Made by a program: the position numbers and the translations under genes. Below, one piece after another: positions 7,609 to 58,643 of a stretch of DNA of 64,000 bases. Below the pieces are notes generated by a model. The model was not told the origin of the DNA. It was given only the letters and a program-made list of their open reading frames with translations, and did no database searches. The stretch is from Heterodontus francisci (lineage: Eukaryota). The stretch is taken from NCBI RefSeq assembly GCF_036365525.1, contig NC_090378.1, positions 82,452,357-82,516,356 of the forward strand, read 5' to 3'. Position 1 is the first letter of the stretch. Every line of letters begins with the position of its first letter.

Positions 7609-10600
7609 CATAGAATGGTTACAGCACAGAAGGAGGCCATTTGGCCCATCGTGTCTGTGCCAGCTCTCTGCAGGAGCAATTCACCTAGTCCCCACTCCTC
7701 TACCCTTTCCCCGTAGACCTGCAATTGTTCTCTTCTAATTATCTAATTCTCTTTTGAAGGCCTTGATTAAATTTGCCTCCACCACACTCGGGCAGTATAT
7801 TCCAGATCCTAACTACTCATTGCGTAAAAAAGATTTTCCTCATGTCGCTGTCGCTTCTTTTGCCAATCACCTTAAATCCTCCTATTTCTGAATTCTTCCT
7901 CTAATGAGAACAGGTGCTCCCTATCTACTCTGTCCAGACCCCTCATGATTTTGATCAGCTCTATCAAATCTCCTCTTAATCCTTCTCTTCTCCAAGGAGA
8001 ACAGACCCAGCTTTTCTAGCCTATCCACATAACTGAAGTTTTTCATCCATGGAACAATTCTTGTGAATCTTTTCTGCATCTTCTCTAATGCCTTCACATC
8101 CTTCCTAACGCGTGGGGCCCAGAAATGAGTTGAGGCTGAACCAGTGTTTTTTTACAGTTTTATCATAACTTCCTTGTTTTTGTACTCTATGCCCCTATTT
8201 ACAAAGCCCAGGATCCCGTATGCTTTATTAACTGCTTTCTCAACCTGCCGTGCCACCTTCAATGATTTGTGTCCCTCTGCTCCTGCACCCCCTTTAGATT
8301 TGTACCCTTGAATTTATATTGCCTCTCCTCATTCTTCCTACTAAAATGAACCACTTCACATTTCTATGCATTAAATTTCATCTGCCACTTGTCTACCCAT
8401 TCCACCATCCTGTCTATGTCCTCTTGAAGTTTATCACTATCCTCCTCACAGTTCACAATATTTTCAAGTTTTATGTCATCTGCAAATTTTGAAATTGTGC
8501 TCTGTACACCCAAGTCTAGATCATTAATATAGATCAAGAAATGCAGTGGTCCTAATACTGATCTCTGGGGAACCCCACTGTAATACCTTCCTCCAGTCCA
8601 AAAGACAACAGTTCACCAGTACTCTCTGTTTCCTGTCACTCAGCCAATTTTGTATCCATGCTGCTACTGACCCTTTTATTCCATGGCTCTAACTTTGCTG
8701 ACAAGCCTGTTATGTGGCACTTTATCAAATGCCTTTTGGAAGTCCGTGTACACCACATTAACCTCGTTGCCCTCATCAACCATCTGTTACCTCATCAAAA
8801 AGCTCAAGCAAGTTAGTTAAACATGATTTGCCCTTAAGAAATCTGTGCTGGCTTTCCTTAATTAATCCACATTTGTGCAAATGACTTTAAATTGTGTCCC
8901 GAATTATCGTTTCTAAAAGCTTTCCCACCACTGAGGTTAAACTGACTGGCCTGTAATTGCTGGGCATATCCTTACACCCTTTTTTAAACATGGATGTAGG
9001 ATTTGCAAATCTCCAGTCCTCTGACACCATCACTGCATCTAAGGAGGATTGGAAGATTACGGCTAGTGCTCTGTAATTTCCTCCCTTACTTCTCTCAGCA
9101 TCCTAGGATTCATCTCATCCAGTTCTGGTGACTTTAAGTACAGCCAGCCTATCTGGTACCTCCGCTTCATCAATTTTTAGCCCATCCAGTGTCTCAACTA
9201 CCCTCTCTTTCACCGTGACTTGGGCAGTATCTTCTTTGGTCAAGGCAAAGTACTCATTTAGTACCTCAACTCTGCCTCCTGCCTCCATGCTCCCTAATCA
9301 TCCCCACTCCTCCTTTTACCACTCCTTTACTATTTATATGCCTATAGAAGACTTTTGGATTTTTTTTATTCATTTGTGGGATGTGGGCGTCGCTGGCTAG
9401 GCCAGCATTTATTGCCCATCCCTAATTGCCCTTAAGTAGGTGGTGGTGAGCTGCTGGCTTGGACTGCTGCAGTCCTTGGGGTGCAGGCATACCCACAGGG
9501 CTGTTAGGAAGGGAGTTCCTGAATCTTGACCAGTGACCGTGAAGGGACAACGATATAGTTCCAGGTCAGGATGATGTGTGGCTTGGAGGGGAAGTTGCAG
9601 GTGGTGGCGTTTCCATGCATCTGCTGCCCTTCTCCTTCTAGGTGGTAGAGGTCATGGGTTTGGAAGGTGCTGTCGAAGGAGCCTTAGTGAGTTGCTGCAG
9701 TGCATCTTGTAGATGGTACACACTGCTGCCATGGTGCATCGGTGGTGGAGGGAGTGAATGTTGGTAGAATGGGTGCCAATCAAGTGGTCTCCTTTGTCCT
9801 GGATGGTGTCGAGCTTCTCGAGTGTTGTTGGAGCTGCATCCATCCAGGTAAGTGAAGAGTATTCCATCACACTCCTGACTTGTGCCTTGTAGATGGTGGA
9901 CAGGCTTTGGGCAGTCAGGAGGTGAGTTACTCGCCGCAGAATTCCCAGCCTCTGACTGCTCTTATAGCCACTGTATTAATGTGGCTGGTCCAGTTCAGTT
10001 TCTGGTCAGTGGTAACCCCCAGGATGTTGATAGGGGATTTAGCAATGGTAATGCCGTTGAATGTCATGGGGAGATGGTTAGATTCTCTTGTTTGAGATGG
10101 TCATTGCCCAACACTTGTGTGGCACGAATGTTACTTGCCACTTATCAGCCCAAGCCTGGATGTTGTCCAGATCTTGCTGCATATGGACATGGGCTGCTTC
10201 AGTATCTGAGGAGTCACGAATGATGCTGAACATTGTGCAATCATCAGCGAACATCCCCACTTCTGACCTTATGATGGAGAGAAGGTCATTGATGAAGTAG
10301 CTGAAGATGGTTGGGCCTCGGACACTACCTTGAGGAACTCCTTGTATGTTAGCTGCCAGTCTCTTCTCATACTGTCTCTTTGCTGCTCTTATTTGTTTTA
10401 TTCACTTCCCCTCTGAACCTTCTATATTCAGCCTGGTTCTCAATTGTATTATCCACCTGGCATCTGTCATATGTACACTTTTTCTGCTTCATCTTACTCT
10501 CTATCTCTTTCATCAGCCAGGGAGCTCTGACTGATCGCCCTACCTTTTCCCCCTTGTGGGAAGGTACCTTGACTGTATCCAAACTATCTCCTCTTTAAAG

Positions 10601-23282: not shown

Positions 23283-23617
23283 TAACAATTGTCATTTATT
23301 CGTGGTTGATATTGAGTGACGTACTTCTGATAAATGGATGACAACCCCAGTCAGTTCAGTACAAAACACTTTTAATCAGTCTTGCAGGATAATTTATAGT
23401 GTTGCCAAAGATTAAAATGTACAGACAGGTGAGATTAGAAATGATTTCACATGATAGTCTTATTAAGTAGCTTTTCGTTAAACTGAAAGCCAAATACATT
23501 TCTGAGAAACAATAAACCTTTAAATGATTCATACGCATTGAAAATTCACTTTTATTTATTAAGTACAATGTGATCATATCCACGTACTGTGTGTACCGAT
23601 TAATTGAGGCTTCCGCT

Positions 23618-24481
23618 TTATTCGAACTGATTTCTCCGCTTCTCTCTGTGTTGTAGAGAATAGTTCTCAGTTTGGGGAAATTCTGTAGATGCTTGTCGAT
23701 GATTTTGCTGAATTGCAGCCTCGTTTTCTTTAGGAATCACCGACACCCGATCCACAAACTTTTGCTTCATCTTCTCCGTCTGCTGCTGCAGCTCCTGCTG
23801 TTTCACAATAGCGTCAGAGTTTCTCTTTTGAAACCTCCTGTAAATGGGGATGGAGGCGATGGTCTGAATGCACTTATCCAAAGTCTGGTGAGATTTCTGC
23901 TGATTAAACAGGAACCGTCTGAAGAGGCGGTTAATCCGCAGGGTTTGATCTCTCTGAATCGTGGCTTCTTCCCACAGTTTTAACACCCGGTCATGCTCAT
24001 TGGTCAGATTCCTTACCTGACTCTGAGCTGCTTGGAGACGATCTTCTAAAAGCTTTCTAACATTTTCCGCCTCAGCCAGATCCGAGGCCATTTGATCTAT
24101 TTCCTGGTGTAACCTGGTATTTTCTTGCAGGAGATTCTTGCATTGTTCCGCCCTCTCCTTCAGTTCTTTTACTACCTCCCTGGTCAGTTTGTTCCTGAGT
24201 CTGGGGTTGGCATCTAGCTGCAGCTCGGGTTGGAGTTTTTTGATAGTTTTATTCAGGCTCTTGTTCTCCGAGTTCAGGGTTTTGATCTTTTCCTTCAGTT
24301 CACGGATTTGTGCTCTCGTCGCCGTCTCGATCATTTGCAATTTATCTCGGCTGATTTCCCCTTTCTTCGACGCTTCGTCTCTTTCTTTCTTGTATTTTTG
24401 TAAGAGTTTCTTGACCTCAGACTTGTTCAGCGTGTTTCTGTGTGGGACAAAGCCCCGGGTCTCCCCCTTTGGGCCGGACAT
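23618..24481 (-). CDS. Uncharacterised coiled-coil protein, single coding exon, 287 aa from ATG at 24481 (MSGPKGETRGF...)
   Basis: Uninterrupted ORF rich in E/K/Q/R/L heptads; ATG in gaaATG context 7 nt after a good acceptor; candidate 90-nt 5' UTR intron 24578-24489; doubled AATAAA at 23560-23551. Confidence 0.75.
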   Translation of the reverse strand: MSGPKGETRGFVPHRNTLNKSEVKKLLQKYKKERDEASKKGEISRDKLQMIETATRAQIRELKEKIKTLNSENKSLNKTIKKLQPELQLDANPRLRNKLTREVVKELKERAEQCKNLLQENTRLHQEIDQMASDLAEAENVRKLLEDRLQAAQSQVRNLTNEHDRVLKLWEEATIQRDQTLRINRLFRRFLFNQQKSHQTLDKCIQTIASIPIYRRFQKRNSDAIVKQQELQQQTEKMKQKFVDRVSVIPKENEAAIQQNHRQASTEFPQTENYSLQHREKRRNQFE

Positions 24482-24919
24482 TTCAAATCTGAGTTTGGGA
24501 CAAACATAGAGAAATGAGTTTGACAGACACATTATACGCCCGTCCCTCTTTGGTTTAAGTTTAAAAATGTACGAATACCTTTCTTCCAAGTTTAGGAGAC
24601 CCTGGTGTTATTCAAGTGGAATGCTCATTGACTGTAATTACAATACTGCTGTCCTCAAATCCAGTCATCTAGCGATAACCCTTCATATTTATTTGAAAAT
24701 AATATTAAGTGATCGGTGTTCTCACTAGCTAAACTGTTTCCACTGGTAGGTGGGTCTATAACCAGAGGACACGGATTTAAAGTAACTGGCAAAAAAAAAG
24801 AGAAATGAGAAGAAGTTTATTTAGGCAGTGAGTTATGATTCGGAATGCGCTGCCTGAAAGGTTGGTGGAAGCAGATTCAGTAGTAACTTTCAAAAGGGAA
24901 TTGGATAAATACTTGAAAG

Positions 24920-27949: not shown

Positions 27950-28605
27950 GGCATCACAGAATTGTTACAATGCAGAAGGAGGCCATTCGGCCCATCGTGT
28001 CTGCACCAGCTCTCCAAAAGTGCAATTTACTCAGTTCGATTCCCCTGCCTGCTCCCCATAACTCGAGTTTTGGACTTCCCCACAAGTGGAAACATTTTCT
28101 CCACATCTACCCTATAAAACCCTTTCATTATCTTCTACATTCTTCTTTTTCATATAACAGTCTAATTCCATTTTGAATGCTTCAATTGAACCTGCCTTCA
28201 CCGCACTCTCAGGCAGCGCATTCCAAACCTTAACCACTCACTGCAGGAAATAGTTTTTCCTCATGCCTCTTTTGCTTCTCTTACCAAATACTTTAAATCT
28301 GTGCCCTCTCGTTCTCAATCCTTTCACGAGTGGGAACAATTTCTCTGTCTACTCTGTCCAGACCCCTCATGATTTTGAATATCTCTATCAAATCACCTCT
28401 CGGCTTGCTCTTCTCCAAGGAAAACAGTCCTAACTTCTCCAGTCTATCTTCATAACTGAAGTTCTTCATTCCTGGAACCATTCTCGTGAATCTTTTCTGC
28501 ACTCTCTCCGATGCCGTCAGATCTTTCCTAAAGTGCGGCGCCCAGAACTGGACACAATACTCCAGCTGAGGCCAAACTAGTGTCTTATACAAGTTCAACA
28601 TAACT
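27950..28605 (-). mobile_element. CR1 3' fragment
   Basis: [24 protein letters not shown]...RGDLIEIFKIM plus tail. Confidence 0.85.
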
Positions 28606-28606
28606 T

Positions 28607-28704
28607 CAAGAAATGCTGGAACCACTCAGCAGGTCTGGCAGCATCTGTGGAAAGAGAAGCAGAGTTAACGTTTCGGGTCAGTGACCCTTCTTCGGTTCCG
28701 AAGA
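28607..28704 (-). mobile_element. Penelope-like terminal repeat fragment, near-identical to 58342-58430
   Basis: caagaaatgctggaaccactcagc...gtgacccttcttcgg shared with the DIO1-intron copy. Confidence 0.75.
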
Positions 28705-29664: not shown

Positions 29665-30180
29665 ACATCGAGTGTACGGTACAGAAACAGCCTATTTGGT
29701 CCAACTGGTCTGTACTAGCATTTATGCTGCTCAGGAGTCTGCTCCCAGCGTTCTTCATCATCCGATGTGCTTATCCAGCTTCCCCTTAAACGTATCAATT
29801 CTACTTGCCTCAACTACTACTGTTGGTAGCGTATTCCGCACTCTTACCACTCTTTTGGGTAAAGGAGTTTCTCCTGAATTCCCTATTGGATTGAGTAGTG
29901 ACTATCTTATATTTATGACTTCAAATTTTGGACTTCCCCACAAGTGGAAACATTTTCTCCACATCTACCCTATCAAACCTTTTCAGTACCTTCTACAGAA
30001 AAGAGCCTCAGCCTTCCCTGATAAGTTCTGGTATCATCCTTGTGAATCTTTTTTGCATCTTCTGCAATGCCTCTACATGCTTTTATATAATATGGAGACC
30101 AGAACTGCATGCAGTACTCCTAGTGTAGTCTATCCAAGGTTCCATACAGATTTAATGTAACTTCTCTGCTTTTCAGTTCT
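29665..30180 (-). mobile_element. Old CR1 3' fragment
   Basis: Similar to 20245-20905 and partly duplicated at 28705-28810. Confidence 0.7.
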
Positions 30181-30939
30181 CTCTCCAGGGGCGACATCAC
30201 AGCTGTGTCCAGCACTATCCTCAAAATTCACACAGCTGCATTTTCTAACAGAAGCGAAGTTAGGCTGAAATCCCGGCTGCTTTTCCCCAGCAGAGCCCCA
30301 ATCACCACCCTTCCAGCATTACCTAATTTCCAATATCCTGCAATTTTTTCACATTTAATTAAAATCTGTAAAATTCTCCCTAAACCAACACTCGTCTTAT
30401 TTTTCAATGACATTTTAACTAGTCTTTTTGCCGGAAACCTCAATTTGGTAATTTACTGCATTGTATGCAATGTGAAGCTGTAATCATTAACAAAGTGAAA
30501 AGATTTAAGTGCCTCCATACCCGACTCCTGCTAGTGTTTCGTCCAAGATGCGAAAAAGGTTTCTCTTTACAGAGAGTCACTCTGTTTGTGTGGACAGAAC
30601 CAGTCAGCTATTTCCTGATTGATTGGTTTTTAGTTCATTGTCAGTGGAGGATCTGACGTTTGTAGTAATTGAACCCTGTCTAATTACACTCAAGATGGTA
30701 CAATGCTCACTTTTTCCTCAGTTACTAACATATCCAGCTCAAATTGCAGTGACTAATTAATGTCAAGTTGGTAGAGTACACCTCAGATAGAAATATCAAA
30801 GTGTAACAGTATATTATGGTGGTGCTAAAGCTTTGTACCAACTGCAGGTCATTATCAAAGCTGGCATAACTTGGCTCATCTTTTGCAAGTTTGTCCCCCA
30901 CCCAACCCCCCTTATAGTAGTGCAATCCTGACAGTTGTA

Positions 30940-31222
30940 AATTTAATAAGTCTAGTAATTTGTGTTGGCATGAGAAAAATGACCATGAATGCTGCTGTAC
31001 TTCCATAAAACTACAATTGATTCACTACTGGCAAGCAGGGAAAGGAATCTGTTACCTCTTCCTTCCCCCCCCTCCCCCCCCCCACCCCGTCTGTCCTATA
31101 TATAACTCCAGTCCCATACTCATAATGCCCTCTGAGCTGGATTAACAAGCCACTCAGTTGTGAAGGCACCTAGGGATGAGCAATAAATTCAGCCTTGCCA
31201 GTTTGGCACACATTCCCAGAAT
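30940..31222 (+). mobile_element. Old SINE of the head+core+LINE-tail family
   Basis: aagccactcagttg joined to aaggcacctagggatgagcaataaat, the same junction as the 39945-40313 copy. Confidence 0.65.
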
Positions 31223-31554
31223 ATTGAAAAATCTTCGAAGTTGTGAACCTGGATAGCTTTAGCAAGCTATTTAACCATGGGGCATCATAGCCATGCTCAA
31301 GCCTGGCCTGAACTGATGTAAATGCAGTGATTAATAATTAACATCAAGTTAGTCGAGTACACCTCAGATAGAAATATCAATACCTTGCAGTAGGGCAATT
31401 GGATAATGATCAGGAGTAAGAATTCCAGCTGATTGCTGGCCATGGAACACTGAAGCCAGTTGTGTCACAGTTGAGATCAGCTAATTCAGCATTTGAATAA
31501 AGATCAAACGTGAGAGATACCACACTAAGCATTGTAGTTACCAACTGAGGCAAA

Positions 31555-31955
31555 AAAAAGGAAAAGAAAGATTAGCATTCATATAGTGTCTTTCATGATC
31601 TCGGGATGTCTCGAAGCACTTTACAGGCAATTAAGTACTTTTGAAGTGAAGTCACTGTTGTAATGTAGGGCACATGACAGTGAACTTGCAAACAGCAAAA
31701 TACCACAAGCAACAATATAATTGTCAGATAATATGTTTTAGTGAGGTTGGTTGAAGAATAAATAGTAGCCAGTGCACTGAGGAGAACTCCACTACTGCTA
31801 TTTTACGTCCACCTGAGACAATTTAACATCTCATCAGCAAGACAGTACCTCCAACAGTGCAGCACTCCCTCAGTACTGCTCTGGAGTGTCAGCCTAGAGT
31901 TTATCTGTGGTGGGACTTGAGCCAGATGAGTGCTACCACTGAGCCATGGCTAACA
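31555..31955 (-). mobile_element. Deu-domain SINE
   Basis: Reverse complement of the Deu core (acagtgcagcactccctcagtactgc) and tail. Confidence 0.75.
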
Positions 31956-33254
31956 TTTCTTTTCAAATTTCAAGCTGGATTTCTTTTTTCAAATATTTCT
32001 GATTACCAAATGAATACTTAAGAGGCAAGCATATCCAAAACTGAAAGCATAAACCCCCTCAGCACAATGAAAACAAATATGTCAGAAGCAATATAAAGTG
32101 CAACTTCTTCAAAAATTGCCAACCAAGGGTAATGAGCCTCAGCTGAAACTCAACTGAAACATTCAAGAGGGATGTAGATTAGATTCCTTTCTCAGAGTGC
32201 AGATATACGAGACTAAATCTTAGCCAAACTGGTATAGCCGCCTGGATCACAAGTGCAGAATATAGACTTACAAATGAACAAGCTGCACTGTTGGAGCCCT
32301 GGTTTCTCTCTCAGGTGGTTGAAAAAAAAATCCCATGGCACTATTCAAAGAGCAGGGGAGTTCTTTCAGTATCCTGATTGACATTTATCAACACACTAAA
32401 AGAGATTATCTGGTTATTATCACATGGCTGTTCGTGGGACCTTACTGTGTGCAAATTGTCTGCTGTATCCCCTATGACTGAGGTTACACTTCAAAAATAC
32501 TTCATTGGCATTTTAGGATGTTCTCAGGTAATGAAAGACACTATAAATTCCAAGTTCTTTCTATCTTATCCACTGCCATCAGGTGTGTTGAGAGAAAGCA
32601 AGCTTGAAAGAAAAATTAGCTTTCCTCAAAAATGGGCAATCTGTCTTTTTCATCTGTTCTTAAGCATGTACTGTTATCTCTATACTCCTTCAATTTTTTA
32701 CTCTTAGTTGGCTTTTATTTTGCGTGTTTGCCAGTAAGGTATTTTAAGGTCTCTTTTGCAGTTGTCCAGTGATGAACATATTTACTATGTAATGGAATGT
32801 AAGCCAATCCTTACTACTGTTTATATTCAGAAATCATTCTCTCATATTACTTCGTACATGGTTGGTCTTCTGCCTATGGTCCAGGGGTGGTGGGCTGAGG
32901 TTGGGGAAAGAGGGACTGTTATCTCTGGAGGTCAGAGTTGGTTCTGGAGATGCAAGAACAGATGGACATTCTGGAGTTTCCTGGATTACCCTTGAGGATC
33001 ACTTACACATTTGGCTGTATTCTTAGTCTCCGCCTGCAAAAAGGGGAAATATGACAAGATGAACCAGGATGAAGAATACATGTGGCAATCTTTCCTTCTT
33101 GGATACTGTGCGGTAATTTTTTTACACAGGTATTTGTTCCACCTGCAATATGCTGGGGAGGATGGAAGACCTATTGAAGGCTGCTTAATTCTTCCTTTCA
33201 TCCAGATGTGGGCACTGCTTCAGGAGCATGACGTGGTTTAGTCATCTCAATGTT

Positions 33255-34291
33255 TTTATAAATTCATTCATGGGATGTGGGCGTTGCTGGCCAGGCCAGC
33301 CTTTATTGCCCATCCCTAATTGTCTTGAGAAGGTGGTGGTGAGCTGTCTTCTTGAACCGCTGCAGTCCTTGTGAGGTAGGTACACCCACAGTGCTGTTAG
33401 GAAGGGAGTTCCAGGATTTTGACCCAACGACAGTGAAGGAACGGCGATATAGTTCCTAGTCAGGATGATGAGTGACTTGGGGGGGGGGGAACTTGCAGGT
33501 GGTGATGTTCCTATGCATGTGCTGCCCTTGAGGTGGTAGAGGTCACGGGTTTGGAAGGTGCTGTCTAAGGAGCCTTGGTGCGTTGCTGCAGTGCATCTTG
33601 TAGATGGTACACACTGCTGCCACTGCGCGTCGGTGGTGGAGGGAGTGAATGTTTGTGGATGGTGTGCCAATCAAGCAGGCTGCTTTGTCCTGGATGGTGT
33701 CGAGCTTCTTGAGTGTTTTTGGAGCTGCACCCATCCAGCCAAGTGGAGAGTATTCCATCACACTCCTGACTTGTGCCTTGTCGATGGTGGACAGGCTTTG
33801 GGGAATCAGGTGAGTTACTCGCTGCAGGATTCCTAGCCTCTGACCTGCTCTTTTTTATTCTTTTTTTTAATACATATTTACAAAAATAACTTTATTAATA
33901 ACAGAAAAGTAAACCAAAACTCAAATTAAAATGCCATTCTCGGTGTCGATGATGCGCTCCAGTCCCTGCGGTGCCCACCGGTCGCGGAAGGCCTCAAGCG
34001 TTCTGACCTGCTCTTGTAGCCATGGTATTTATATGGCTACTCCAGTTCAGTTTCTGGTCAATGGTAGCCCCCAGGATGTTGATAGTGGGGGATTCAGCGC
34101 TAGTAATGCCATTGAATGTCATGGGGAGATGGTTAGATTCTCTCTTGTTGCAGATGGTCATTGCCTGGCACTTGTGTGGCTCAAATGTTACTTGCCACTT
34201 ATCAGCCCAAGCCTGGATATTGTCCAGGTCTTGCTGCATTTTTACCCGGACTGCTTAGTATGTGAGGAGTCGCGAATGGTGCTGAACATTG
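33255..34291 (-). mobile_element. Truncated LINE of the tRNA-headed family, host of two nested insertions; continues at 37518-37672
   Basis: MEYSPLGWMGAAPKTLKKLDTIQDKAA, QQDLDNIQAWADKWQVTF; sequence resumes in register after each insert. Confidence 0.92.
33853..34001 (-). mobile_element. 149-bp 3' stub of an L1/Tx1-type LINE with a 14-bp TSD
   Basis: TSD TCTGACCTGCTCTT at 33839-33852 and 34002-34015; minus strand TLEAFRDRWAPQGLERIIDTENGILI*, then AATAAA and an A-rich tail. Confidence 0.8.
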
Positions 34292-37200
34292 GGGTAGGCG
34301 GTGGTGTTGTGGTATTATCACTGGACTAATAACCTAGAGACCCAGGGTATTTCTCTGGGGACATGGGTTCGAATCCCACCACAGCAGAAGGTGGAATTTG
34401 AATTTAATTAATAAATCTGGAATTAAAAAGCTAGTCTAATGATAGTCATGAAACCATTGTCGATGTTGTAAAAACCCATCTGGTTCACTAATGTCCTTTA
34501 GGGAAGGAAATCTGCTGTCCTTACCTGGTCTGGCCTACATGTGACTCCAGACCCACAGCAATGTGGTTAACTCTTACATGCCCTCTGAAATGGCCTAGCA
34601 AGCCACTCAGTTGTACCTAACCGCTACGAAGTCAATAAAAAGGAATGAAACCGGATGGACCACCTGGCATCGACCTAGGCACCGGAAACGACAACGGCAA
34701 ACCCAGCCCTGTCGACCCTGCAAAATCCTCCTTACTAACATCTGGGGGCTTGTGCCAAAGTTGGGAGAGCTGTCCCACAGACTAGTCAAGCAACAGCCTG
34801 ACATAGTCATACACACCGAATCATACCTCACAATGTCCCAGACACTGCAATCACTATCCCTGGGTATGTCCTGTCCCACCAGCAGGACAGACCCAGCAGA
34901 GGTGGTGGCAGAGTGGTAAACAGTAGGGAGGGAGTTGCCCTGGAAGTCCTCAACATCGATTCCGGATCCCTTGAAGTCTCATGGCATCAGGTCAAACGTG
35001 GGCAAGGTAACCTCCTACTGATTACCACGTACCGCCCTCCCTCAGCTGATGACTCAGTACTCCACCATATTGAACACCACTTGAAGGAAGCACTGAGGGT
35101 GGCAAGGGCACAAAATGTACTCTGGGTGGGGGACTTCAATGTCCATCACCAAGAGTGGCTCGGTAGCACCACAGCTGGCCGAGTCCTAAAGGACATAGCT
35201 GCTAGACTGGGTCTGCGGCAGGTGGTCGGGGAACCAACACGAGGGAAAAACATACTTGACCTCGTCCTCACCAATCTGCCTGCCGCAGATGCTTCTGTCC
35301 ATGACTGCATTGGTAGGAGTGACCACCGCACAGTCCTTGTGGTGACGAAGTCCCGCCTTTACATTGAGGATACCGTCCATCGTGTTGTGTGGCACTATCA
35401 CCGTGCTAAATGGGATAGATTTCGAACAGATTTAGCAATACAAAATGCTGTGGGCCATCAGTAGCAGCAGAATTGTACTCAACCACAATCTGTAACCTCA
35501 TGGCCCAGCATATCCCCCACTCTACCATTACCATCAAGCCAGGAGACCAACCCTGGTTCAATGAAGAGTGCAGGAGGTCATGCCAGGAGCAGCACCAGTC
35601 ATACCTCAAAATGAGGTGTCAACCTGGTGAAGCTACAACACAGGACTATCTGCGTGCCAAACTGCATAAGCAGCATGCGATAGACAGAGCTAAGCAATCC
35701 CATAACCAACAGATGAGATCTAAGCTCTGCAGTCCTGCCACATCCAGCTGTGAAAGGTGGTGGACAATTAAACAACGAACTGGAAGAGGTGGCTCCACAA
35801 ATATCCCCATCCTCAATGATGGGGGAGCCCAGCACATCAGTGCGAAAGATAAGGCTGAAGCATTTGCAACAATCTTCAGCCAGAAGTGCCAAGTTGATGA
35901 TCCATCTCAGCCTCCTCCTGAAGTCCCCAGCATCACAGATGCCAGACTTCAGCCAATTCGATTCACTCCGCGTGATATCAAGAAACGACTGAAGGCACTG
36001 GATACTGCAAAAGCTATGGGCCCTGACAATATTCCGGCAATAGTACTGAAGACCTGTGCTCCAGAACTTGCCGCGCCCCTAGCCAAGCTGTTCCATTTCA
36101 GCTACAACACTGGCATCTACCCTGCAATGTGGAAAATTGCCCAGGTATGTCCTGTACACAAAAAGCAGGAGAAATCCAACCCGGCCAATTACCACCCCAT
36201 CAGCTTACTCTCAATCATCAGTAAAGTGATGGAAGGTGTCATCAACAGTGCCATCAAGCGGCACTTGCTTAGCAATAACCTGCTCAGTTTGGGTTGCGCC
36301 AGGGCCATTCAGCTCCTGACCTCATTACAGCCTTGGTTCAAAAATGGACAAAAGGGCTGAACTCCAGAGGTGAGGTGAGTGACTGCCCTTGACATCAAGG
36401 CAGCATTTGACTGAGTATGGCATCAAGGAGCCCTAGCAAAACTGAGGTCAATGGGAATCAGGGGGAAACCCTCGGCTGGCTGGAGTCATACCTAGCGCAA
36501 AGGAAGATGGTTGTGGTTGTTGGAGGTCAATCATCTGAGCTCCAGGACATCACTGCAGGAGTTCCTCAGGGTAGTGTCCTAGGCCCAACCATCTTCAGCT
36601 GCTTCATCAATGACCTTCCTTCAATCATAAGGTCAGAAGTGGGGCTGTTCGCGGATGATTGCACAATGTTCAGCACCATTCGTGACTCCTCAGATACTGA
36701 AGCAGTCCGTGTAGAAATGCAGCAAGACCTGGACAATATCCAGGCTTGGGCTGATAAGTGGCAAGTAACATTCGCGCCACACAAGTACCAGGCAATGACC
36801 ATCTCCCCTTGACATTCAACAGCATTACCATCGCTGAATCCCCCACTATCAACATCCTGGGGGCTACCATTGACCAGAAACTGAACTGGAGTAGCCATAT
36901 AAATACGGTGGCTACAAGAGCAGGTCAGAGGCTAAGAATCCTGAGGTGAGTAACTCACCTCCTGACTCCCCAAAGCCTGTCCACCATCTACAAGGCACAC
37001 TTGTAATACTCTCCACTTGCCTGGATGGATGCAGCTCCAACAACACAAGAAGCTTGACACCATCCAGGACAAAGCAGCCCGCTTGATTGGCACCCCATCT
37101 GCAAACATTCACTCCCTCCACCACCGACGCACAGTAGCAGCAGTGTACCATCTACAAGATGCACTGCAGCAATGCACCGCAGCAATGCACTAAGGCTCCT

Positions 37201-37517
37201 TAGACAGCACCTTCCAAACCTGCAACCTCTACCAACTAAAAGGACAAGGGCAGCAAATACATGGGAACACCACCACCTGCAAGTTGCCCTCCAAGTCACA
37301 CACCACCCTGACTTGGAACTATATCACCGTTCCTTCACTGTCGCTGGGTCAAAATCCTGGAACTCCCTTCCTAACAGCACTTTGGGTGTACCTACCCCAA
37401 ATGGACTGCAGCGGTTCAAGAAGGCAGCTCACCACCAGCTTCTCAAGGGCAATTAGGGACGGGCAATAAATGCTGGCCTGGCCAGCGTCGTCCACATCCC
37501 TAATGAATTTTTTTTAA
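34292..37517 (+). mobile_element. Full-length CR1-group LINE with a tRNA-derived 5' head and a single, now frameshifted, APE endonuclease-RT ORF (~34590-37456)
   Basis: TSD AACATTG (34285-34291 / 37518-37524); A box 34302-34312, B box GGTTCGAATCC 34366-34376; ILLTNIWGL, YRPP, GDFN, SDH, GVPQGSVLGP, FADD motifs. Confidence 0.92.
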
Positions 37518-39789
37518 AACATTGCGCAATCATCAGCGATCATCCCCACTTCTGACCTTATGATTGAAGGTCATTGATGAAGCAGCTGAAGATGGTTGGG
37601 CCTAGGACACTACCCTGAGGAACTCCTGCAGTGATGTCCTGGAGCTCAGATGATTGACCTCCAACAACCACAGTGTGATACTTTTTATATGTATTTACCC
37701 AGGGTGCACTTACTTGGATCTGAACTTAGTCCTTGAAATTCACTTGTGAAATTCTACACAAAATCATGTAATATAACGTTTAATCCACTCATGAACATTT
37801 TGTGAAGATTAGCATTTTTGCATAAAGTTCAGCTTTTCAAAAAGTTTAATTATTTGCTAACACACACATTTAACACAATTAAGTAAATCTGTACATTAAT
37901 ATTCACTAGTAAAGAAAAAAATATTCTAAGACAATGATCAAACAACTTTTTACCAAATAAATTTTGTGGAGTATCAGAGAAAAACATTTACAGTCTGCAA
38001 CAAGTACATCCTTTGTAAGACCATGAAAAAGTAGAACAGAAAATCAAAGCCATCACAATGTGAGAATAATCCCAAAACGTAATTTAGAGTTTAGTCAGCT
38101 TGGAGCTCTACAACAGTCAAGTGTCCTGGTGTTCCATTGACCAGACTTCTTTGAAGTTTTTCTTTAATTATGTAACCTAAGTTACATTGATTGTTTAGTC
38201 TGAAGAGCCTTCCCAATTACTGAGACATCAGTGAAAGAATCTGCAAGCAAACACAGAATTTTTCACAAAGAATGCAGAGAACTGACTTTTGATGTTTTCA
38301 AGATTATGAATTAATTGACAAAACATTGACTCAGGTGCATTTTCAATATGGTGAAGAGGAGGTCAGTTAATCATTTCAGAAGTTCAAAGCAAGAAACATC
38401 TTGGAAATTAAGTAGTCAGGGATATTTTTATATGAAGGATAATAGATTTGTATTATAAGTTACCAGACGAGGCCATTGAAACCAACTGTATAGGCTAGGT
38501 TAAGAGACATTTAGATGTGTTTCTGAAGAGAAATGCACTGCAGGATATGGTAATTAGGAAGTGGGGTTGTTATCAATCGAAAAAGGATAGATAAATGGCC
38601 TTTCCTGTTTCTAAAAGCTCTGATATCACATCATAATAAATTTATTTAAAATACCTAAATTTTCTCATTAGCAAAACTTTCTGGCTTAAAATTTAACAAA
38701 AAGGGGAAAATGTTTGGCAGTGAGATCATCTTCACTGATCAGAGAACTCACCCTATATAGGGGAACCTAACAGAACCAACTATCAAGCATCCCTGTTCTC
38801 CTGGTATATCACTGTCTCACCAAAAGCTGTTGAGTAACTGCTGCCGACAGGGCAGAGGCAACTTTTAATCAAGCACAAAGAATAAAGAGGATACAGTGGA
38901 ATATATTTTATAAAAGAAATTGAACTTTATTAATTTTCATAACTTCTGACAACTTGCTTTCAGGATAGGGTAGTAGAGGTACAGGCTGTTGAGTTTCTAA
39001 TATGAGATAAGTAACTACATATCCAAAAACCTTCCTCCCCAACTCCTCACATTAGACTCAAAAATCATAAAGCTGACCTGAAATTCTGAATATGCAATTC
39101 TGCAGGTATTATAGCAGTTTAATTTACCAATCTCAAAAGAAAAAGATAATAACTGAGAAGTGAACGTATTTTTTAAACTGGAAACACTGGTCAATTTTGG
39201 AATGTAAACATGTTGAATGTGAAGAGAGCCAATGTGAATAAGCTTGAAACAATCATATCAAATTTTAGTTTCAAATTTTCTCCTCTCCTGAAAGTGGTGG
39301 GGTAGGTTTCTACAGAGTTGTCAGCAGCTACTCCACTTTAGGGTGCATCAAAGCCAAGCCTGATCCGTTCCTATCTGGTATTCACCGATGCACTTTCCAC
39401 CGGGCATTACTGCAAAGTGATGATGGACAGAAACCCTGGCTGGTATTTTTTCCACTTCTCTACTCCAGAAACATTGAGGCCAATTAAACAGCACCTGCTA
39501 TTCCCTAGCTGAGATTAGCTAAATCAGCAAAGACTTGAAACCTTCCTGTTTTATGTGTGTCAGTAACACAGTTAACCATTGAGCTATTGGACAGCCTACT
39601 ATATTAAGATTTTTAAATTAGAAACCACCAGCCAGTTTTTGGACTGAATCTAAGGTAGAAACACAATGTGATCAAAGTTTAAACAATTGTAATCAAATTG
39701 AGATGTTATAATTATGTTTCTTGGTCAATTACCTGCTACCAGTCCCTCTTTCCCAGGGTATGAGGCTTTGGAAACACTCACCTCGCAGG

Positions 39790-39888
39790 TTATGTTTTGT
39801 GGGAAACCAAAGTAGTCCCATTAATGGTCGCAGTAGTGGTTGTGGGGACAAAAGGTTTGACTTTTTCTGGAGGATCAAAGAAATAAGC
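39790..39888 (-). CDS. YIPF1: YIPF1 last coding exon with stop
   Basis: ccccag|GCT TAT TTC TTT GAT = AYFFDPPEKVKPFVPTTTTATINGTTLVSHKT*; the eight exons sum to 930 nt in frame. Confidence 0.92.
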   Translation of the reverse strand, partial: AYFFDPPEKVKPFVPTTTTATINGTTLVSHKT

Positions 39889-39944
39889 CTGGGGAACAGC
39901 AACAAAATCATTTTAAAATTATTGTAGAACTAAGTTTTTTAAAT

Positions 39945-40313
39945 TCTTTTCATGGGATGTGGGCATCACTGGCAAGGTCAGCATTTATTGCCCATCCCTA
40001 TTTACCCTTGACAACTGAGTGGCTTGCTAGGCCATTTCAGAGGGCAGTTAAGAGTCAATCACATTGCTGTGGGTCTGGAATCATGTGTAGGCCAGACCAG
40101 GCAAGGACAGCAGATTCCTTCCCTAAAGGACATTAGCGAACCATATGGGTTTTACAACGTTTCATAGCACCATTACTGAGATTAGCTTTCAATTCCAGAT
40201 TTTTTTATTTATTAATTCAATTTAAATTCCACCAACTGCCATGTGTCCCCAGGGCATAGCCTGGGCCTCTGGAAAACTAGTTCAGTGACATTACCACTTT
40301 GTCACCATCTCCC
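39945..40313 (-). mobile_element. SINE made of the 5' head/core plus 3' tail of the 34292-37517 LINE
   Basis: Colinear with 34292-34613, then jumps to 37443-37510 at ...ctcagttg|tcaaggg...; B box deleted in this copy. Confidence 0.88.
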
Positions 40314-40354
40314 CCTGTTCCCATTTTAAACATATGCTGGGTGAGTTCATTTCG

Positions 40355-40887
40355 AGTCATAGTCATTTATGCCACAGAAGGCCATTCAGCCCAGCAAGTC
40401 ATGCCAGCTCGCCACAAAGAATCCAGTCAGTCCCATACCTGCGCTCGATCCCCTCAGCCCGACAAGTCTATTTCTCTCAAGTGGCCATCCAACTTCCTCT
40501 TGAAGTCACTGACTGTCTCCACTTCAACCACCCTTGTGAGCAGTGAGTTACCACCTGGTGTAAAAACGTGCTTCTTCATATCCCCCTGCATCACTTGCCC
40601 AAAATCTTCAATCTGTGACCTCTAGTCCTTGTACCATTAGTTAATGGGAACAGTTTTTCCTTGTCTATCATAATTTTGTACACTTCTTATTAAATCTCCC
40701 CTCAATTTCCTTTGTTCTAAGGAGAACAAACACAGCTTTTCCAACATAACCTTGTAACTATATCCTCTATCCCTGGAACCATTTTGGTAAATCTCCTGTG
40801 CACTCTCTCAAGGACCTTCACATCCTTCCTGAAGTGTGGTGGCCAGAATGGGATACAATACTCCAGTTGGGGCCTAACCAGAGCTTT
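40355..40887 (-). mobile_element. Old CR1 3' fragment interrupted by the full-length CR1; continues 45118-45275
   Basis: ALVRPQLEYCIPFWPPHFRKD on the left joins YKSREVMLNLYK on the right. Confidence 0.85.
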
Positions 40888-43800
40888 GCTTTTGCGAGCA
40901 GCAGCTTTGACAGAACGAAGTGCGGAGCGGACTTTCAGCTGAGCGGTCAATTTCAAAAAGTTACAAGTTAATCCCCTTTTGTTTCGGAGGACCAGGGGAC
41001 TGCTGGGTAAGGGAAAACTATTTATTTGGGCAGTGGCAGTACCCGAGACACTACACGTGTAGTGTCTCCCACCCACCCTCCTCCTCTAACCAAAAAAAAA
41101 GGACTCTGGTGTGTTGATAAGGTAAGCTTTTTATTTAAAAAGTTCAGTCCGTCGGATTGCTAAGCGAACAAGTTTTGACTTTTTTTTTTAGTTTGGTTTT
41201 TCAGTAGATTTATTGGGAATCTAGAATAGTGGGAATGGAGGTGAAGGCAGTTGTATGTTCCTCCTGCAGAATGTGGGAGGTAGGGGTCGCCAAGAGTGTC
41301 CCTGCTGACTGCATCTGCGGGAAGTGCACCCAACTCCAGCTCCTCGCAGACCGCGTTAGGGAACTGGAGCTGGAGCTGGATGAACTTCGGATCATTCGGG
41401 AGGCGGAGGGGATTATTGACAGGAGTTATAGGGAGGCAGTCACACCTCAGGTAAAAGAAGTAGGTAGATGAGTTACCGTCAGGGGAAGGAAAGGGAACCA
41501 GCAGGCAGTGCAGGGATCCCCTGTGGCCGTTTCCCTCAACAACAGGTATACCGTTTTGGATACTGTTGGGGGGGACGACTTACCAGGGGTAAGCAGGTCT
41601 CTGGCACAGAGTCTGTCCCTGTTGCTCAGAAGGGAAAGGGGAAGAGGAGCAGAGCATTAGTCATTGGGGACTCCATAGTTAGGGGAACAGATAGGAGGTT
41701 CTGTGGGAACGAGAGAGACTCATGGTTGGTGTGTTGCCTCCCAGGTGCCAGGGTACGTGATGTCTCCGATCGTGTTTTTGGGATCCTTAAGGGGGAGGGG
41801 GAGCACCCCCAAGTCGTGGTCCACATAGGCACCAACGACATAGCTAGGAAGAGAGATGGGGATTTAAGGCAGAAATTCAGGGAGCTAGGGTGGAAGCTTA
41901 GAGCGAGAACAACCAGAGTTGTTATCTCTGGGTTGTTGCCTGTGCCACGTGCTAGCGAAGAGAGGAATAGGGAGAGAGAGGAGTTGAACACGTGGCTGCA
42001 GGGATGGTGTAGGAGGGAGGGTTTTGGTTTCCTGGATAATTGGGGCTCTTTCTGGGGTAGGCGGGACCTCTACAAACAGGATGGTCTTCACCTGAACCAG
42101 AGGGGTACCAATATCCTGGGGGGGAGATTTGTTAGTGCTCTTCGGGGGGGTTTAAACTAAATCAGCAGGGGAATGGGAACCTAAATTGTAGTTCCAGTGT
42201 ACAGGCTGTTGAGAGTAGTGAGGTCGGGGATAAGGTTACAGGGACGCAAGAGGGCACTGGCAAGCAAGAACTTGGTTTAAAGTGTGTCTACTTCAACGCC
42301 AGGAGCATCCGGAATAAGGTGGGTGAGCTTGCAGCATGGGTTGGTACCTGGGATCCTGATGTTGTGGCCATTTCAGAGACATGGGTAGAGCAGGGGCAGG
42401 AATGGATGTTGCAGGTTCCGGGATTTAGATGTTTCAGTAAGAACAGAGAAGAGGGTAAAAGAGGGGGGGGTGTGGCATTGTTAATCAAGGAAAGTATTAC
42501 AGCGGCAGAAAGGACGTTTGAGGACTCGTCTACTGAGGTAGTATAGGCCGAGGTTAGAAACAGGAGAGGAGAGGTCACCCTGTTGGGAGTTTTCTATAGA
42601 CCTCCGAATAGTTCCAGAGATGTAGAGGAAAGGATAGCGAAGATGATTCTCGACAGGAGCGAGAGTAACAGGGTAGTGGTTATGGGGGACTTTAACTTTC
42701 CAAATATTGACTGGAAATACTATAGTTCGAGTACTTTAGATGGGTCTGTTTTTGTCCAGTGTGTGCAGGAGGGTTTTCTGACACAGTATGTGGACAGGCC
42801 AACCAGGGGCGATGCCACATTGGATTTGGTACTGGGTAATGAACCCGGCCAGGTGTTCGATTTAGATGTAGGTGAGCACTTTGGCGATAGTGATCACAAT
42901 TCGGTTAGGTTTACCTTAGCGATGGGCAGGGACAGGTATATACCGCAGGGCAAGAATTATAGCTGGGGGAAAGGAAATTATGACGCGATTAGGCAAGATT
43001 TAGGATGTGTAGGATGGGGAAGGAAACTGCAGGGGATGGGCACAAACGAAATGTGGAGCTTATTCAAGGAGCAGCTAATGCGTGTCCTTGATAAGTATGT
43101 ACCTGTCAGGCAGGGAGGAAGTTGTCGAGCGAGGGAGCCGTGGTTTACTCAAGAAGTTGAAGCGCTTGTCAAGAGGAAGAGGGCGGCTTATGTTAGGATG
43201 AGACGTGAAGGCTCAGTTAGGGCGCTTGAGAGTTACAAGCTAGCCAGGAAGGATCTAAAGGGAGGGCTAAGAAGAGCAAGGAGAGGACACGAGAAGTCAT
43301 TGGCGGATAGGATCAAAGAAAACCCTAAGGCTTTCTATAGGTGTATCAGGAATAAACGAATGATAAGAGTTAGAACAGGGCCAATCAAGGATAGTAGTGG
43401 GAAGTTGTGTGCGGAATCAGAGGAGATAGGGGAAGCGTTAAATGAATATTTTTCGTCAGTATTTACAGTAGAAAAAGAAAATGTTGCCGAGGAGATTACT
43501 GAGATACAGCCTACTAGGCTAGATGGGATTGAGATTCACAAGGAGGAGGTGTTAGCAATTTTGGAAAGAGTGAAAATAGATAAGTCCCCTGGGCCAGATG
43601 GGATTTATCCTAGGATTCTCTGGGAAGCCAGGGAGGAGATTGCAGAGCCGTTGTTGTTGATCTTTATGTCGTCATTGTCGACAGGAGTAGTGCCGGAGGA
43701 CTGGAGGATAGCAAATGTTGTCCCCTTGTTCAAGAAGGGGAGTAGAGACAGCCCTGGTAATTATAGACCTGTGAGCCTTACTTCGGTTGTGGGTAAAATG

Positions 43801-45117
43801 TTGGAAAAGGTTATAAGAGACAGGATTTATAATCATCTTGAAAAGAATAAGTTCACTTGCGATAGTCAGCACGGTTTTGTGAAAGGTAGGTCGTGCCTCA
43901 CAAACCTTATTGAGTTTTTCGAGAAGGTGACCAAACAGGTGGATGAGGGTAAAGCCGTGGATGTGGTGTATATGGTTTTCAGTAAGGCGTTTGATAAGGT
44001 TCCCCACGGTAGGCTATTGCAGAAAATACGGAAGTATGGGGTTGAAGGTGATTTTGAGCTTTGGATCAGAAATTGGCTAGCTGAAAGAAGACAGAGGGTG
44101 GTGGTTGATGGCAAATGTTCATCCTGGAGTTTAGTTACTAGTGGTGTACCGCAAGGTTCTGTTTTGGGGCCACTGCTGTTTGTCATTTTTATAAACGACC
44201 TGGATGAGGGTGTAGAAGGGTGGGTTAGTAAATTTGCGGATGACACGAAGGTCGGTGGAGTTGTGGATAGTGTCGAAGGGTGTTGTAGGGTACAGAGGGA
44301 CATAGATAGGCTGCAGAGCTGGGCTGAGAGATGGCAAATGGAGTTTAATGCGGAGAAGTGTGAGGTGATTCACTTTGGAAGGAGTAACAGCAATGCAGAG
44401 TACTGGGCTAATGGGAAGATTCTTGGTAGTGTAGATGAGCAGAGAGATCTTGGTATCCAGGTACATAAATCCCTGAAAGTTGCTACCCAGGTTAATAGGG
44501 CTGTTAAGAAGGCATATGGTGTGTTAGCTTTTATTAGTAGGGGGATCGAGTTTCGGAGCCACGAGGTCATGATGCAGCTGTACAAAACTCTGGTGAGGCC
44601 GCACCTTGAGTATTGCGTGCAGTTCTGGTCACCGCATTATAGGAAGGATGTGGAAGCTTTGGAAAGGGTGCAGAGGAGATTTACTAGGATGTTGCCTGGT
44701 ATGGAAGGAAGGTCTTATGAGGAAAGGCTGAGGGACTTGGGGTTGTTTTCGTTAGAGAGAAGGAGGAGGAGAGGTGACTTAATAGAGACATACAAGATAA
44801 TCAGAGGGTTAGATAGGGTGGATAGTGAGAGTCTTTTTCCTCGGATGAGGATGGCAAACACGAGGGGACATAGCTTTAAGTTGAGGGGTGAAAGATATAG
44901 GACAGATGTCAGAGGTAGTTTCTTTACGCAGAGAGTAGTAGGGGCGTGGAACGCCCTGCCTGCAACAGTAGACTCGCCAACTTTAAGGGCATTTAAGTGG
45001 TCATTGGATAGACATATGGATGTAAATGGAATAGTGTAGATCAGATGATCGGCGCAACATCGAGGGCCGAAGGGCCTGTACTGCGCTGTAATATTCTAAA
45101 AAAAATTCTAATTCTAA
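40888..45117 (+). mobile_element. Near-intact full-length CR1 LINE (HER1-like): 5' UTR, ORF1 (zinc finger/leucine zipper + SGNH esterase), ORF2 (APE-RT); antisense in a YIPF1 intron
   Basis: ORF1 CSSC...CGKC, zipper, IGDSIVRG, HIGTND, DGLHLN; ORF2 CVYFNARS, GDFN, SDH, QHGF, FADD; attcta-repeat tail; lesions: TGA 41469, an ORF1 frameshift near 41594, TAG 42544. Confidence 0.95.
42151..45039 (+). pseudogene. CR1 ORF2 endonuclease/reverse transcriptase with one premature stop
   Basis: One reading frame from the ORF1 junction to 45039, interrupted only by TAG at 42544-42546 (likely TGG>TAG). Confidence 0.88.
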
Positions 45118-45379
45118 TTTATAAAGGTTCAGCATAACTTCCCTGCTTTTGTACTGAATGCCTCTTTTTATGAAGCCCAAGATCACATATGCTTTACTAA
45201 CCACTCTCTCAATATGTCCTGTCACCTTTACAGATCGATGCACATGAACCCCCAAGTCCCTCTGTTCCTGCACATTCTAACACTGGCTCACTAGATTTTA
45301 TTATGCCTTAGTTGTAGTCCAAAAAAATTACAATTTTCTTTGAAATGTGGTTCAGTAAACCTACACCACATTAGAAAAG

Positions 45380-45842
45380 GAAGAAAAAAAAGGAAGTCAT
45401 GCATTTATATAGCGCCTTTCATGACCACCAGACATCCCAAAGCACTTTCCAGCCAATTAAGTACTTTTTGAAGTACAGTCACAGTTGTAATGCAGGCAAC
45501 ACAGCAGTCAATTCATGCACAGCAAGCTCTCACAACCAGCAATGTGACATTGACCAGACAATCTGTTTTTGTGATGTTGATTGAGGGATTGTTATTGGCC
45601 AGGACATTGTGGATAACTCCACTGCTCTTCTTCGAAATAGGGCCATGGGATCTTTTACGTTACCTGAGACAGCAGACAGGGCCTCAGTTTAACATCTCAT
45701 CCAGAATACGAACCTCCAACAGCGCAGTACCGCACTGGAATGTCAGCTTTGATTTTTGTGCTCAAACCCTAGAGTGGGACTTGAGCCCACAACATATTTG
45801 ACTCAGAGTGAGTGTGCTATCAACTGAGGCACAGCTGACACT
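45380..45842 (-). mobile_element. Deu-domain SINE, near full length
   Basis: tRNA-like head (tgcctcagttgatagcac...gggctcaagtccc on the minus strand), Deu core and gcgctatataaatgc tail. Confidence 0.82.
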
Positions 45843-46531
45843 TATTTTACACTTTAGACAAAAACAGCCAAACAAAATTACAGAAATAAACAGATGGATG
45901 TTCTGAAAACATGAAATGAAAATAATAAATGCTGGAACTACACAAGAATTCAATCAGCATCTGAAAAGATTCCAGTGAAAGATCCCATCCAAAAACAGTA
46001 GATAGTTTGCCCTTTGAGATGAATCTGCCGGTACAATTCCAGCATTCCCCATTTTGAACACAACATTGCAAAAAGTTGAAACCACCACTACAAAATATGA
46101 ATGTCACACTTGAAGAATGCTGATCATGTGAAACTGAAGCTAAACAAACAAATTACGAAGGTTTAAAGAAACACAGTACTTCTCAGAAAATGGGATGAGA
46201 CTTTGTAAATTCTTCCCAAACTGTTTGCTGCCCAGTTTATTTTAGGTGCTGATTGCTCAGTATTGGAACTAGCTAGTGCCACTCTAGATCAGTTCCAGTA
46301 CTGGGAAAATATCTTTGCTGGCAAGCTGAACACAGCATTCATATGAGGCCAATGGAAAAACTTGCTGGATTTGTGGAGGTCTAAAGAAATGAATATAGAC
46401 CAGAAATAATCCTAATTTACAATTTTACCATGTTAATGTGAAACTTAGCAAAAAGCACTTTGCATTTAGGTTTTGTAACAATTTTTCTTTAGAAATGTCA
46501 ATGTTTATCTTTCAATAGAGCAACTTAGTAC

Positions 46532-49894: not shown

Positions 49895-50190
49895 AGTTTC
49901 ATTACCCCACATTGCAACAGTAACTACAGTTCAAGAAGTATTTAATAGAGCAGGGATGATGTCCTGGCCAATATTTATCCTTCAATCAACATCACAAAAA
50001 CAGATTATCTAGTCATTATCACAATGCTGTTTGTGAGAGCTTGCTTTGTGCAAATTAGCTGCCATGTTTCCTACAGTACAAATTGGCTGTAAAGAACTTT
50101 GAGACGTCCGGTGGTGTTGTAAAGTGCTATATAAATGCAAGTCTTTTTTACATGCTTTGGGACATCTTGAGGTTGTGAAAAGCACTATGG
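49895..50190 (+). mobile_element. Deu-domain SINE 3' part, rearranged
   Basis: tgtcctggccaatatttatcc...aaagtgctatataaatgcaag. Confidence 0.7.
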
Positions 50191-51672: not shown

Positions 51673-51805
51673 TCAGCACATAAGACTAAGGGCAACTCCA
51701 GGACCTCTGCTGCTGCCCTAGCAATGGCCAAACTCAGGCCCAGCACCTTCCTGGTCTGCATGGCTTGTTTCTGCACCTTTGACCGCATCACCTACCCAGA
51801 CATAA

Positions 51806-51988
51806 AATAAAAGCAAAATACTGCAGATGCTGGAAAGCTCAAATAAAAATAGAAAATGCTGGAAATTCTCAGCAGGTCTGGCAGCATCTGTGGAAAGAGG
51901 AACAGACCTGAAACGTTAACTGTTTTTCTCTCTCAACAGATGTTGCCACACCTACTGAGTATTTCCAGCACTTTCTGTTTTTATTTCA
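51806..51988. mobile_element. Penelope-like inverted-repeat remnant
   Basis: Two opposed copies of the gctggaaa...cagcatctgtgga repeat around gacctgaaacgttaac. Confidence 0.7.
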
Positions 51989-58540: not shown

Positions 58541-58643
58541 ATATAGCAGAAAGCTCTCTTCATGGATACATGCACTGTGGTACAAAGCCTTACAAGAATA
58601 TCCCAGATCTGTGCATGATACACTTGTAAGTCAAGATAACATA

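Follow-up and report, generated by a model that had tools for sequence, protein, structure and literature searches.

A tRNA-headed Zenon LINE of elasmobranchs and a SINE that is probably its internally deleted derivative

Background

Zenon LINEs have been described from elasmobranchs, coelacanth and hagfish as elements that lack an ORF1 and carry a poly(A) end (PMC13343379, main text and Table S2), and the name CR1-Zenon, with no head attached to it in the passages concerned, is used in a whale shark preprint (10.1101/443036). An internally deleted Zenon derivative is known from moths: Persaeus, a SIDE of lepidopteran Zenon, is composed of the 5' UTR, the ORF's last part and the 3' UTR, with a variable central region and neither a Pol III promoter nor homology to tRNA, according to the sections of PMC6740152 that deal with it. 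SINEs with a tRNA head followed by both a 5' and a 3' part of a LINE, such as Bov-tA and the RTE- and Vingi-derived versions, are accounted for by the bipartite model, in which the tRNA head joins an already deleted, Pol II-transcribed LINE (Kojima 2018, PMC5786205, in the part setting out the model). Among shark SINEs, the pertinent passages give SacSINE1 as a 463 bp element with an L2 partner (PMC2746220), with which, in the form of L2-2_CM, it shares the tail alone (PMC5499810). Further context is found in parts of PMC7245038, PMC4824008, PMC3747384 and PMC11481361.

A full-length Zenon with a tRNA-like head

The window analysed here, i.e., the whole stretch of 64,000 nucleotides from Heterodontus francisci, contains a full-length LINE and truncated relatives of it, with the following features:

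34292..37517, plus strand: full-length, decayed LINE assigned to elasmobranch Zenon, one insertion unit (target duplication, protein and consensus matches)
34285..34291, plus strand: left target-site duplication, 7 bp (sequence comparison)
37518..37524, plus strand: right target-site duplication, 7 bp; the site occurs once in the paralogous Zenon at 10215-10250
34298..34386, plus strand: tRNA-like head of the LINE, with an A box at 34302, a B box at 34367 and a long extra arm (motifs, ARAGORN at a lowered threshold, fold)
34469..34614, plus strand: conserved non-coding core in the LINE 5' UTR (alignment, reads, consensuses)
34644..37456, plus strand: single APE-RT frame, with frameshifts and stops in this copy and no ORF1 (Pfam, protein matches)
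37443..37517, plus strand: last ORF codons, 3' stem-loop and A-rich end, common to the SINE (alignment, fold z -3.2, reads)
9360..10342, minus strand: 5'-truncated Zenon copy (BLASTN, protein match)
33248..37672, minus strand: older 5'-truncated Zenon, split by the full-length insertion into 33248-33852, 34002-34291 and 37518-37672

The element spans 3,226 bp, with similarity to APE domains beginning about 440 nt from its 5' end and the frame extending to 37456; matches were recovered to PF14529 (E 6e-14) and PF00078 (E 1e-14). Its protein relatives are, in the first place, fragments of shark gene models at 70-84% identity, followed by single-ORF elements of about 950 aa, which at 33-41% identity are the closest non-shark proteins. 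The shark gene models P0012, P0032, P0035, P0036, P0074, P0099 and P0111 contain pieces of the Zenon ORF that were either exonised or mis-predicted. The LINE is assigned to elasmobranch Zenon, in the CR1 group, on the agreement of its nucleotides, as judged by eye, with the consensuses given that name in Table S2 of PMC13343379 over their first 400 nt, where CarCar_Zenon, HypSab_Zenon, RhiTyp_Zenon, ScyCan_Zenon and SquAca_Zenon resemble it; the elasmobranch versions described there are further alike in their length of ~3.2-3.3 kb, the one APE-RT frame, the lack of an ORF1 and the poly(A) end. Neither the head nor the SINE partner, nor the depletion of T runs reported below, is described in the main text of that paper, in which the words "tRNA", "promoter" and "polymerase" have no matches and SINE appears in one reference title only.

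Both the A and the B box are found by motif in the LINE head and can be recognised by eye in the published consensuses. At default settings ARAGORN finds no tRNA in the 64-kb window; at a lowered threshold it calls the LINE head, labelled Ile, along with 126 calls in 80 unrelated loci, so that the call taken alone is weak. Rfam yields a weak tmRNA-type arm match at 34337-34381 (E 0.006) and no gathering-level match in 30000-41000. The head, which may be of tRNA-Ser-like origin, folds better than its shuffled versions (z -2.6), as does the 3' stem-loop in three copies (z -3.2, -2.6 and -2.0), whereas the core does not (z -0.6). In the dogfish consensus both sides of the extra-arm stem are altered, as judged by eye. 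The 3' stem-loop is likely the site recognised by the RT. As for the end of the element, the copies at 9360 and 33248 are A-rich there, and the 3' end of the full-length copy bears a T8 that is private to it; behind position 37500 the loose-end consensus of the reads ends in an A run in three of the four runs listed.

Two further observations pertain to these copies. Positions 33853-34001, within the older Zenon copy, hold a 150-nt insert that is unique in the window, with a minus-strand A-tail and a short flanking repeat, and it resembles the 3' end of another LINE, perhaps a Tx1/L1-like one. Over 37346-37405 many reads jump back by 46-56 nt, which points to a subfamily or satellite in which a segment close to the 3' end of Zenon is duplicated in tandem.

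A SINE composed of the two ends of the LINE

The short element is represented in the window by two copies:

39935..40316 (about), minus strand: whole copy of the SINE with its A-rich end (BLASTN, alignment)
40226..40316, minus strand: tRNA-like head of the SINE, whose B box was lost to a 16-nt deletion in this copy (alignment)
40011..40225, minus strand: middle and core; LINE 34393-34614 is the homologous stretch, with the core at 93% (alignment)
39935..40011, minus strand: tail, homologous to LINE 37443-37517, with the shared T at 40011 (alignment)
30915..31232, plus strand: older, more diverged copy, in which core and tail are joined in the same way, at 31161/31162 (BLASTN, alignment)

The preliminary description of this DNA had placed the SINE at 39945..40313; the element is real, with its limits now extended to about 40316-39935 on the minus strand. 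It is short, non-coding and repeated, and it ends in the 3' tail of its partner LINE. BLASTN aligns SINE 40297-40011 with LINE 34309-34614 (76% over 317 columns, E about 1e-61) and SINE 40014-39949 with LINE 37440-37507 (82%, E about 1e-12). Taken by part, the identities are 60/82 for the tRNA-like segment, 54/68 for the middle, 130/140 for the core and 49/58 for the tail, the core thus standing above both the head (73%) and the tail (85%). No clear target duplication was found flanking 39935-40316.

The SINE amounts to LINE 34292-34614 fused to LINE 37443-37517, with no private sequence: the join is a single T common to LINE 34614, LINE 37443 and SINE 40011, no base is inserted, and the tail begins within the last four codons of the LINE ORF. 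BLASTN and the junction alignment thereby bear out the initial claim that the SINE consists of the 5' part of the LINE continued into its end from 37443 over one shared T. Likewise upheld was a diverged copy with the same junction near 31150-31220, save that it starts further 5', at about 30915; its core is 78% identical to both the LINE and the SINE, and its tail 72-77%. The long period of amplification that had been proposed agrees with these two window copies, with cores at 93% versus 78%, and with several junction forms in the reads. Very diverged core-like and tail-like pieces of the SINE/LINE family are also seen at 7565-7612 and 3687-3717.

This architecture can be set against the systems introduced above. 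Like Persaeus, which is 260-390 bp long, ends in poly(A) and occurs in high copy number, the SINE is a non-autonomous element with Zenon ends, and in both the tail starts in the end of the ORF (PMC6740152, in its account of Persaeus). They differ in that Persaeus has a variable central region and is devoid of both tRNA homology and a Pol III promoter, while the present join is free of filler and the head is found in the parent LINE. In terms of what defines a SIDE, the SINE possesses both LINE ends but departs from the absence of tRNA homology, having a tRNA-like head in common with the LINE; the copy at 39935-40316 is without its B box. It also parallels the bipartite SINEs in combining a tRNA head with 5' and 3' LINE parts; in those, however, the small-RNA head is missing from the partner LINE and was added later (PMC5786205, in its statement of the model), whereas here the full-length LINE carries it. 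Given that head, a deletion alone would give the SINE.

The head as a family-level feature

The window has only one head-bearing LINE copy, which by itself would be in keeping with a one-off chimera, formed when a SINE fragment came by chance to lie before a headless LINE. This explanation is nevertheless contradicted on three counts and can be regarded as vanishingly improbable. First, the 7-bp target duplication encloses the head and the ORF jointly. Second, raw reads from four of 24 listed runs were compared with 34240-37540 at 85% likeness; X20-X22 contained next to none of the words and were excluded, while in each of two raw-read runs about 2,200 reads span the border between head and ORF. 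At position 34618, barely within the LINE-only part, a single letter that is not that of the SINE is shared by 2,065 of the 2,176 reads of X23 and, in X24, by 2,066 of 2,223. Third, all seven elasmobranch Zenon consensuses, from five species, begin with the LINE head and core and run into the same ORF-proximal sequence, while none of the three from coelacanth and hagfish has the head in its first 400 nt. This comparison covered the 10 Zenon entries in Table S2 of PMC13343379, over their first 400 nt and by eye; a 14-nt core motif was found in six rows of the 1,004-row sheet of the same source, all of them elasmobranch Zenon. Hence head-bearing LINEs are no rare chimeras, a possibility that had been named as fatal to the original reading, and alignment, reads and consensuses alike trace the head, core and tail to one LINE family.

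The reads also reveal the short forms. Read depth in X23 is 15,207 in the core at 34577 and, beyond the head-ORF border, still 3,862 at 34725. Among the 15 of 9,107 joints that are listed, seven head-to-tail joints have defined ends, and all of these land at 37440-37444. Their starts in X23, again among the joints listed, lie at 34609-34612 (974 reads), 34589 (776) and 34576 (285); the best-supported runs from 34611 to 37443, 2 nt shorter than the form in the window, whose exact joint is absent from those 15 of 9,107. There are accordingly several short subfamilies with a common 3' breakpoint, a pattern that fits one origin followed by small deletions.

The order of events

The preliminary description offered two alternatives: the SINE arose by deletion of the ORF, or an old SINE captured an RT ORF. 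Deletion remains the favoured origin of the short form, but the history is better cast as two steps, the first being the acquisition of the head by the LINE. We consider it likely that elasmobranch Zenon gained its head and that an internal deletion then yielded the SINE. In the first step, an ancestral Zenon of sharks and rays would have acquired a tRNA-derived type-2 Pol III promoter and a non-coding stretch of 230 nt as its 5' end, probably through template switching onto a tRNA-headed RNA, perhaps that of an extinct SINE. In the second, a deletion that began at the end of the 5' UTR and ended four codons ahead of the stop would have removed the ORF, leaving the head, the core, the 3' recognition stem-loop and the poly(A). 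The short form would thus retain a promoter and the tail bound by the RT, and could be mobilised in trans by Zenon; several short subfamilies would later have lost more bases 5' of the join.

That the SINE derives by internal deletion from the head-bearing Zenon line is, in our estimation, the probable reading, and it is favoured by the way core and tail meet directly, with nothing private to the SINE between them and a microhomology of 1 nt. The parent was not the LINE subfamily in the window. Sites were counted as informative if the window LINE and the SINE disagree there and the dogfish consensus departs from both the white shark and the catshark one; at all six of these (by eye, one ambiguous site dropped) the SINE agrees with the dogfish-like state and the window LINE with that of white shark and catshark. 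The SINE would therefore have split off earlier. The higher identity in the core than in the head and tail could reflect a later exchange between SINE and LINE.

The converse order, in which a headless Zenon received head and core from a tRNA SINE with a Zenon-type tail, draws on several of the same observations: the outgroup Zenons are without the head, the SINE keeps dogfish-consensus states missing from the window LINE, and short forms are at least as frequent as head-ORF borders (2,035 reads in listed joints against 2,176 in X23, with a core depth of 15,207). A tRNA followed by an anonymous body is, moreover, the typical architecture of a SINE, which makes a SINE donor plausible. In a variant of this scenario an RT ORF was inserted into a SINE, creating an autonomous element, with today's SINE descending from the donor line. 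Both versions have to contend with the LINE's head-ORF border, which shows no SINE-only sequence or tail remnant, and with the precision demanded of the switch, which must strike the SINE's own core/tail boundary within ~3 nt of ~300 (estimated at ~2% by chance). We therefore rate the SINE-first order, in either form, as unlikely, and retain head gain by the LINE followed by internal deletion.

The origin of the head

The 5' ends of RT relatives, whose inspection had been proposed, lack the head in every relative examined by BLASTN, alignment or consensus. None of 80 metagenome RT relatives has head similarity by BLASTN (80/80, best E 0.3), and of the six having upstream DNA none gives a head alignment above shuffle or contains an upstream B box. 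Rfam finds no match in eight relative loci, an exact 20-nt core motif has no matches in the viral, metagenome and prokaryote collections, and nothing turned up when prokaryote and viral contigs were scanned for ORFs. The outgroups compared were coelacanth, hagfish, the metagenome relatives and the moth derivative; the headless state of these outgroups points to a gain in the elasmobranch Zenon line. We infer that the head is derived there, on the sequences compared, unless the crustacean sister elements named in PMC13343379 have it.

That proviso bears on another possibility, namely that one Zenon sub-clade possessed the tRNA head ancestrally, for instance by bringing it along from an invertebrate, with the SINE still a deletion product. 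In the phylogenetic part of PMC13343379 elasmobranch Zenon groups with crustacean elements and not with other vertebrate Zenons, and the closest non-shark proteins are merely 33-41% identical; still, no head is present in the metagenome, coelacanth and hagfish relatives seen, and all but one of 80 relatives carry T4 runs. We deem such an ancestral head very unlikely, and continue with a head gained in the elasmobranch line.

The non-shark Zenon-like elements L001 (5' ~390-560) and L002 (1-90) share short 5' UTR motifs, which by eye also resemble the coelacanth Zenon consensus and have no Rfam match. Judged from sequence, these may represent an ancestral 5' element that was replaced by the tRNA head.

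Terminator depletion and possible Pol III transcription

Over 3,216 nt, the sense strand of the LINE has not a single run of at least four T (expected 5.0, P 0.006), as compared with 16 such runs of A, 10 of C and 8 of G. The four remaining Zenon pieces of the window are likewise without one, though being homologous they are not independent, whereas three CR1 pieces have 14, 9 and 5. At least one T4 run occurs in 79 of the 80 RT relatives, and the five relatives with T at 23% or less predict seven for the LINE (P 0.0009). Since TTTT or TVTTT are reported as the shortest working Pol III terminators (PMC8466645, in the part on terminators), both were counted: the LINE has one where 8.6 are expected (P 0.002); in its coding segments there are none, against 4.1 in a permutation of their own codons (P 0.004). 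T4 alone is not significant in a dinucleotide shuffle (P 0.088) or a permutation of the LINE's own codons (P 0.071), nor is the Phe TTT/TTC bias on its own (P 0.12).

The first 264 codons of the frame have no in-frame ATG, versus 13 in the next 654 (P 0.005); among 17 relatives, 16 show an internal Met within that first stretch. At 34645 an ATG lying out of frame starts a frame of 46 codons; this ATG is present, by eye, in six of the seven consensuses.

The depletion of terminators on the sense strand suggests that the LINE is autonomous and has Pol III as its polymerase, and we lean slightly towards elasmobranch Zenon being such an element, with cap-independent and perhaps non-AUG translation. 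The fuller picture, to which we give little better than an even chance, is of a Zenon RNA made end to end by Pol III from a captured tRNA promoter, 3.2 kb in length, uncapped, free of oligo-T and translated although no in-frame AUG precedes the endonuclease, with deletion of the ORF giving rise to a SINE in one step. Alternatively, the head may act as a Pol II promoter and the T-poor composition may have another cause. Comparable among LINEs is R2, a single-ORF element whose RNA does not arise as a capped Pol II product and in which translation may start without an AUG; R2 is co-transcribed by Pol I and freed by a ribozyme, whereas the window LINE is proposed to use an internal promoter of the tRNA type.

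Should the Pol III reading hold, it would break the working rule by which LINEs belong to Pol II and SINEs to Pol III, and would provide a natural protein-coding Pol III transcript of 3.2 kb, the translation of which is directly testable. No report of a tRNA-headed or Pol III LINE was found in the literature searched, which included few subscription journals, and no paper in it proposes the origin of a SINE by internal deletion of a tRNA-headed LINE, though the consensuses themselves stand in a 2026 supplement. Nor was a name for the SINE found in that literature, including by a text search for four motifs, with Repbase, Dfam and SINEBase outside its scope. As kinds, a Zenon and an internally deleted derivative are both known already; the pair would become categorically new only with a demonstration that Pol III transcribes the LINE. 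The preliminary description, sound on the anatomy, had overlooked the Zenon identity, the known internally deleted derivatives of Zenon and the terminator-free coding strand; what is added here is that identity, the outgroup polarity, the junction classes, the codon-aware terminator test and the separation from SacSINE1. The pair also offers a path by which a LINE turns into a SINE in a single step, and it bears on the origin of SINE bodies, in that head, body and tail all lead back to a single living parent family. In repeat annotation of sharks, the head and core would be masked randomly as SINE or LINE.

A second SINE family and other features of the window

The name SacSINE1/Deu was considered for the short element and dropped. 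The Deu-SINEs are alike in being tRNA-headed shark SINEs with a conserved middle, as laid out in the relevant parts of PMC5499810 and PMC2746220, but SacSINE1, at 463 bp, has an L2-type tail, while the window SINE is ~380-400 bp long with a Zenon tail; the short element is thus probably not a member. A better-fitting repeat lies elsewhere in the window, namely a second, unrelated SINE family of ~455 nt at 45388-45850 on the minus strand, with no T4 runs on its sense strand and with partial copies at 23177-23283, 31562-31796, 32325-32509 and 49959-50148. Its segment 45396-45848 (453 nt) fits the length of SacSINE1 and gives no alignment with the window SINE above shuffle in any of eight comparisons. 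It resembles a Deu-SINE and may be one.

A nearly intact CR1 LINE at 41468-45228 on the plus strand, with an esterase (GDSL) ORF1 and an open APE-RT frame of 830 aa, was used as a control; CR1 fragments also occur at 7742-9119, 15289-16974, 28161-28607 and elsewhere. An open frame of 329 codons at 23618-24607 on the minus strand encodes a coiled-coil-like protein with no Pfam match above the cut-off and is probably a host exon. A long C/T-rich tandem repeat occupies 59742-60264. Finally, a family of palindromic short repeats is found at 11918-12490, 28607-28695, 51802-51988 and 58338-58544, of which 28607-28695 is identical to 58342-58430 over 89 bp.
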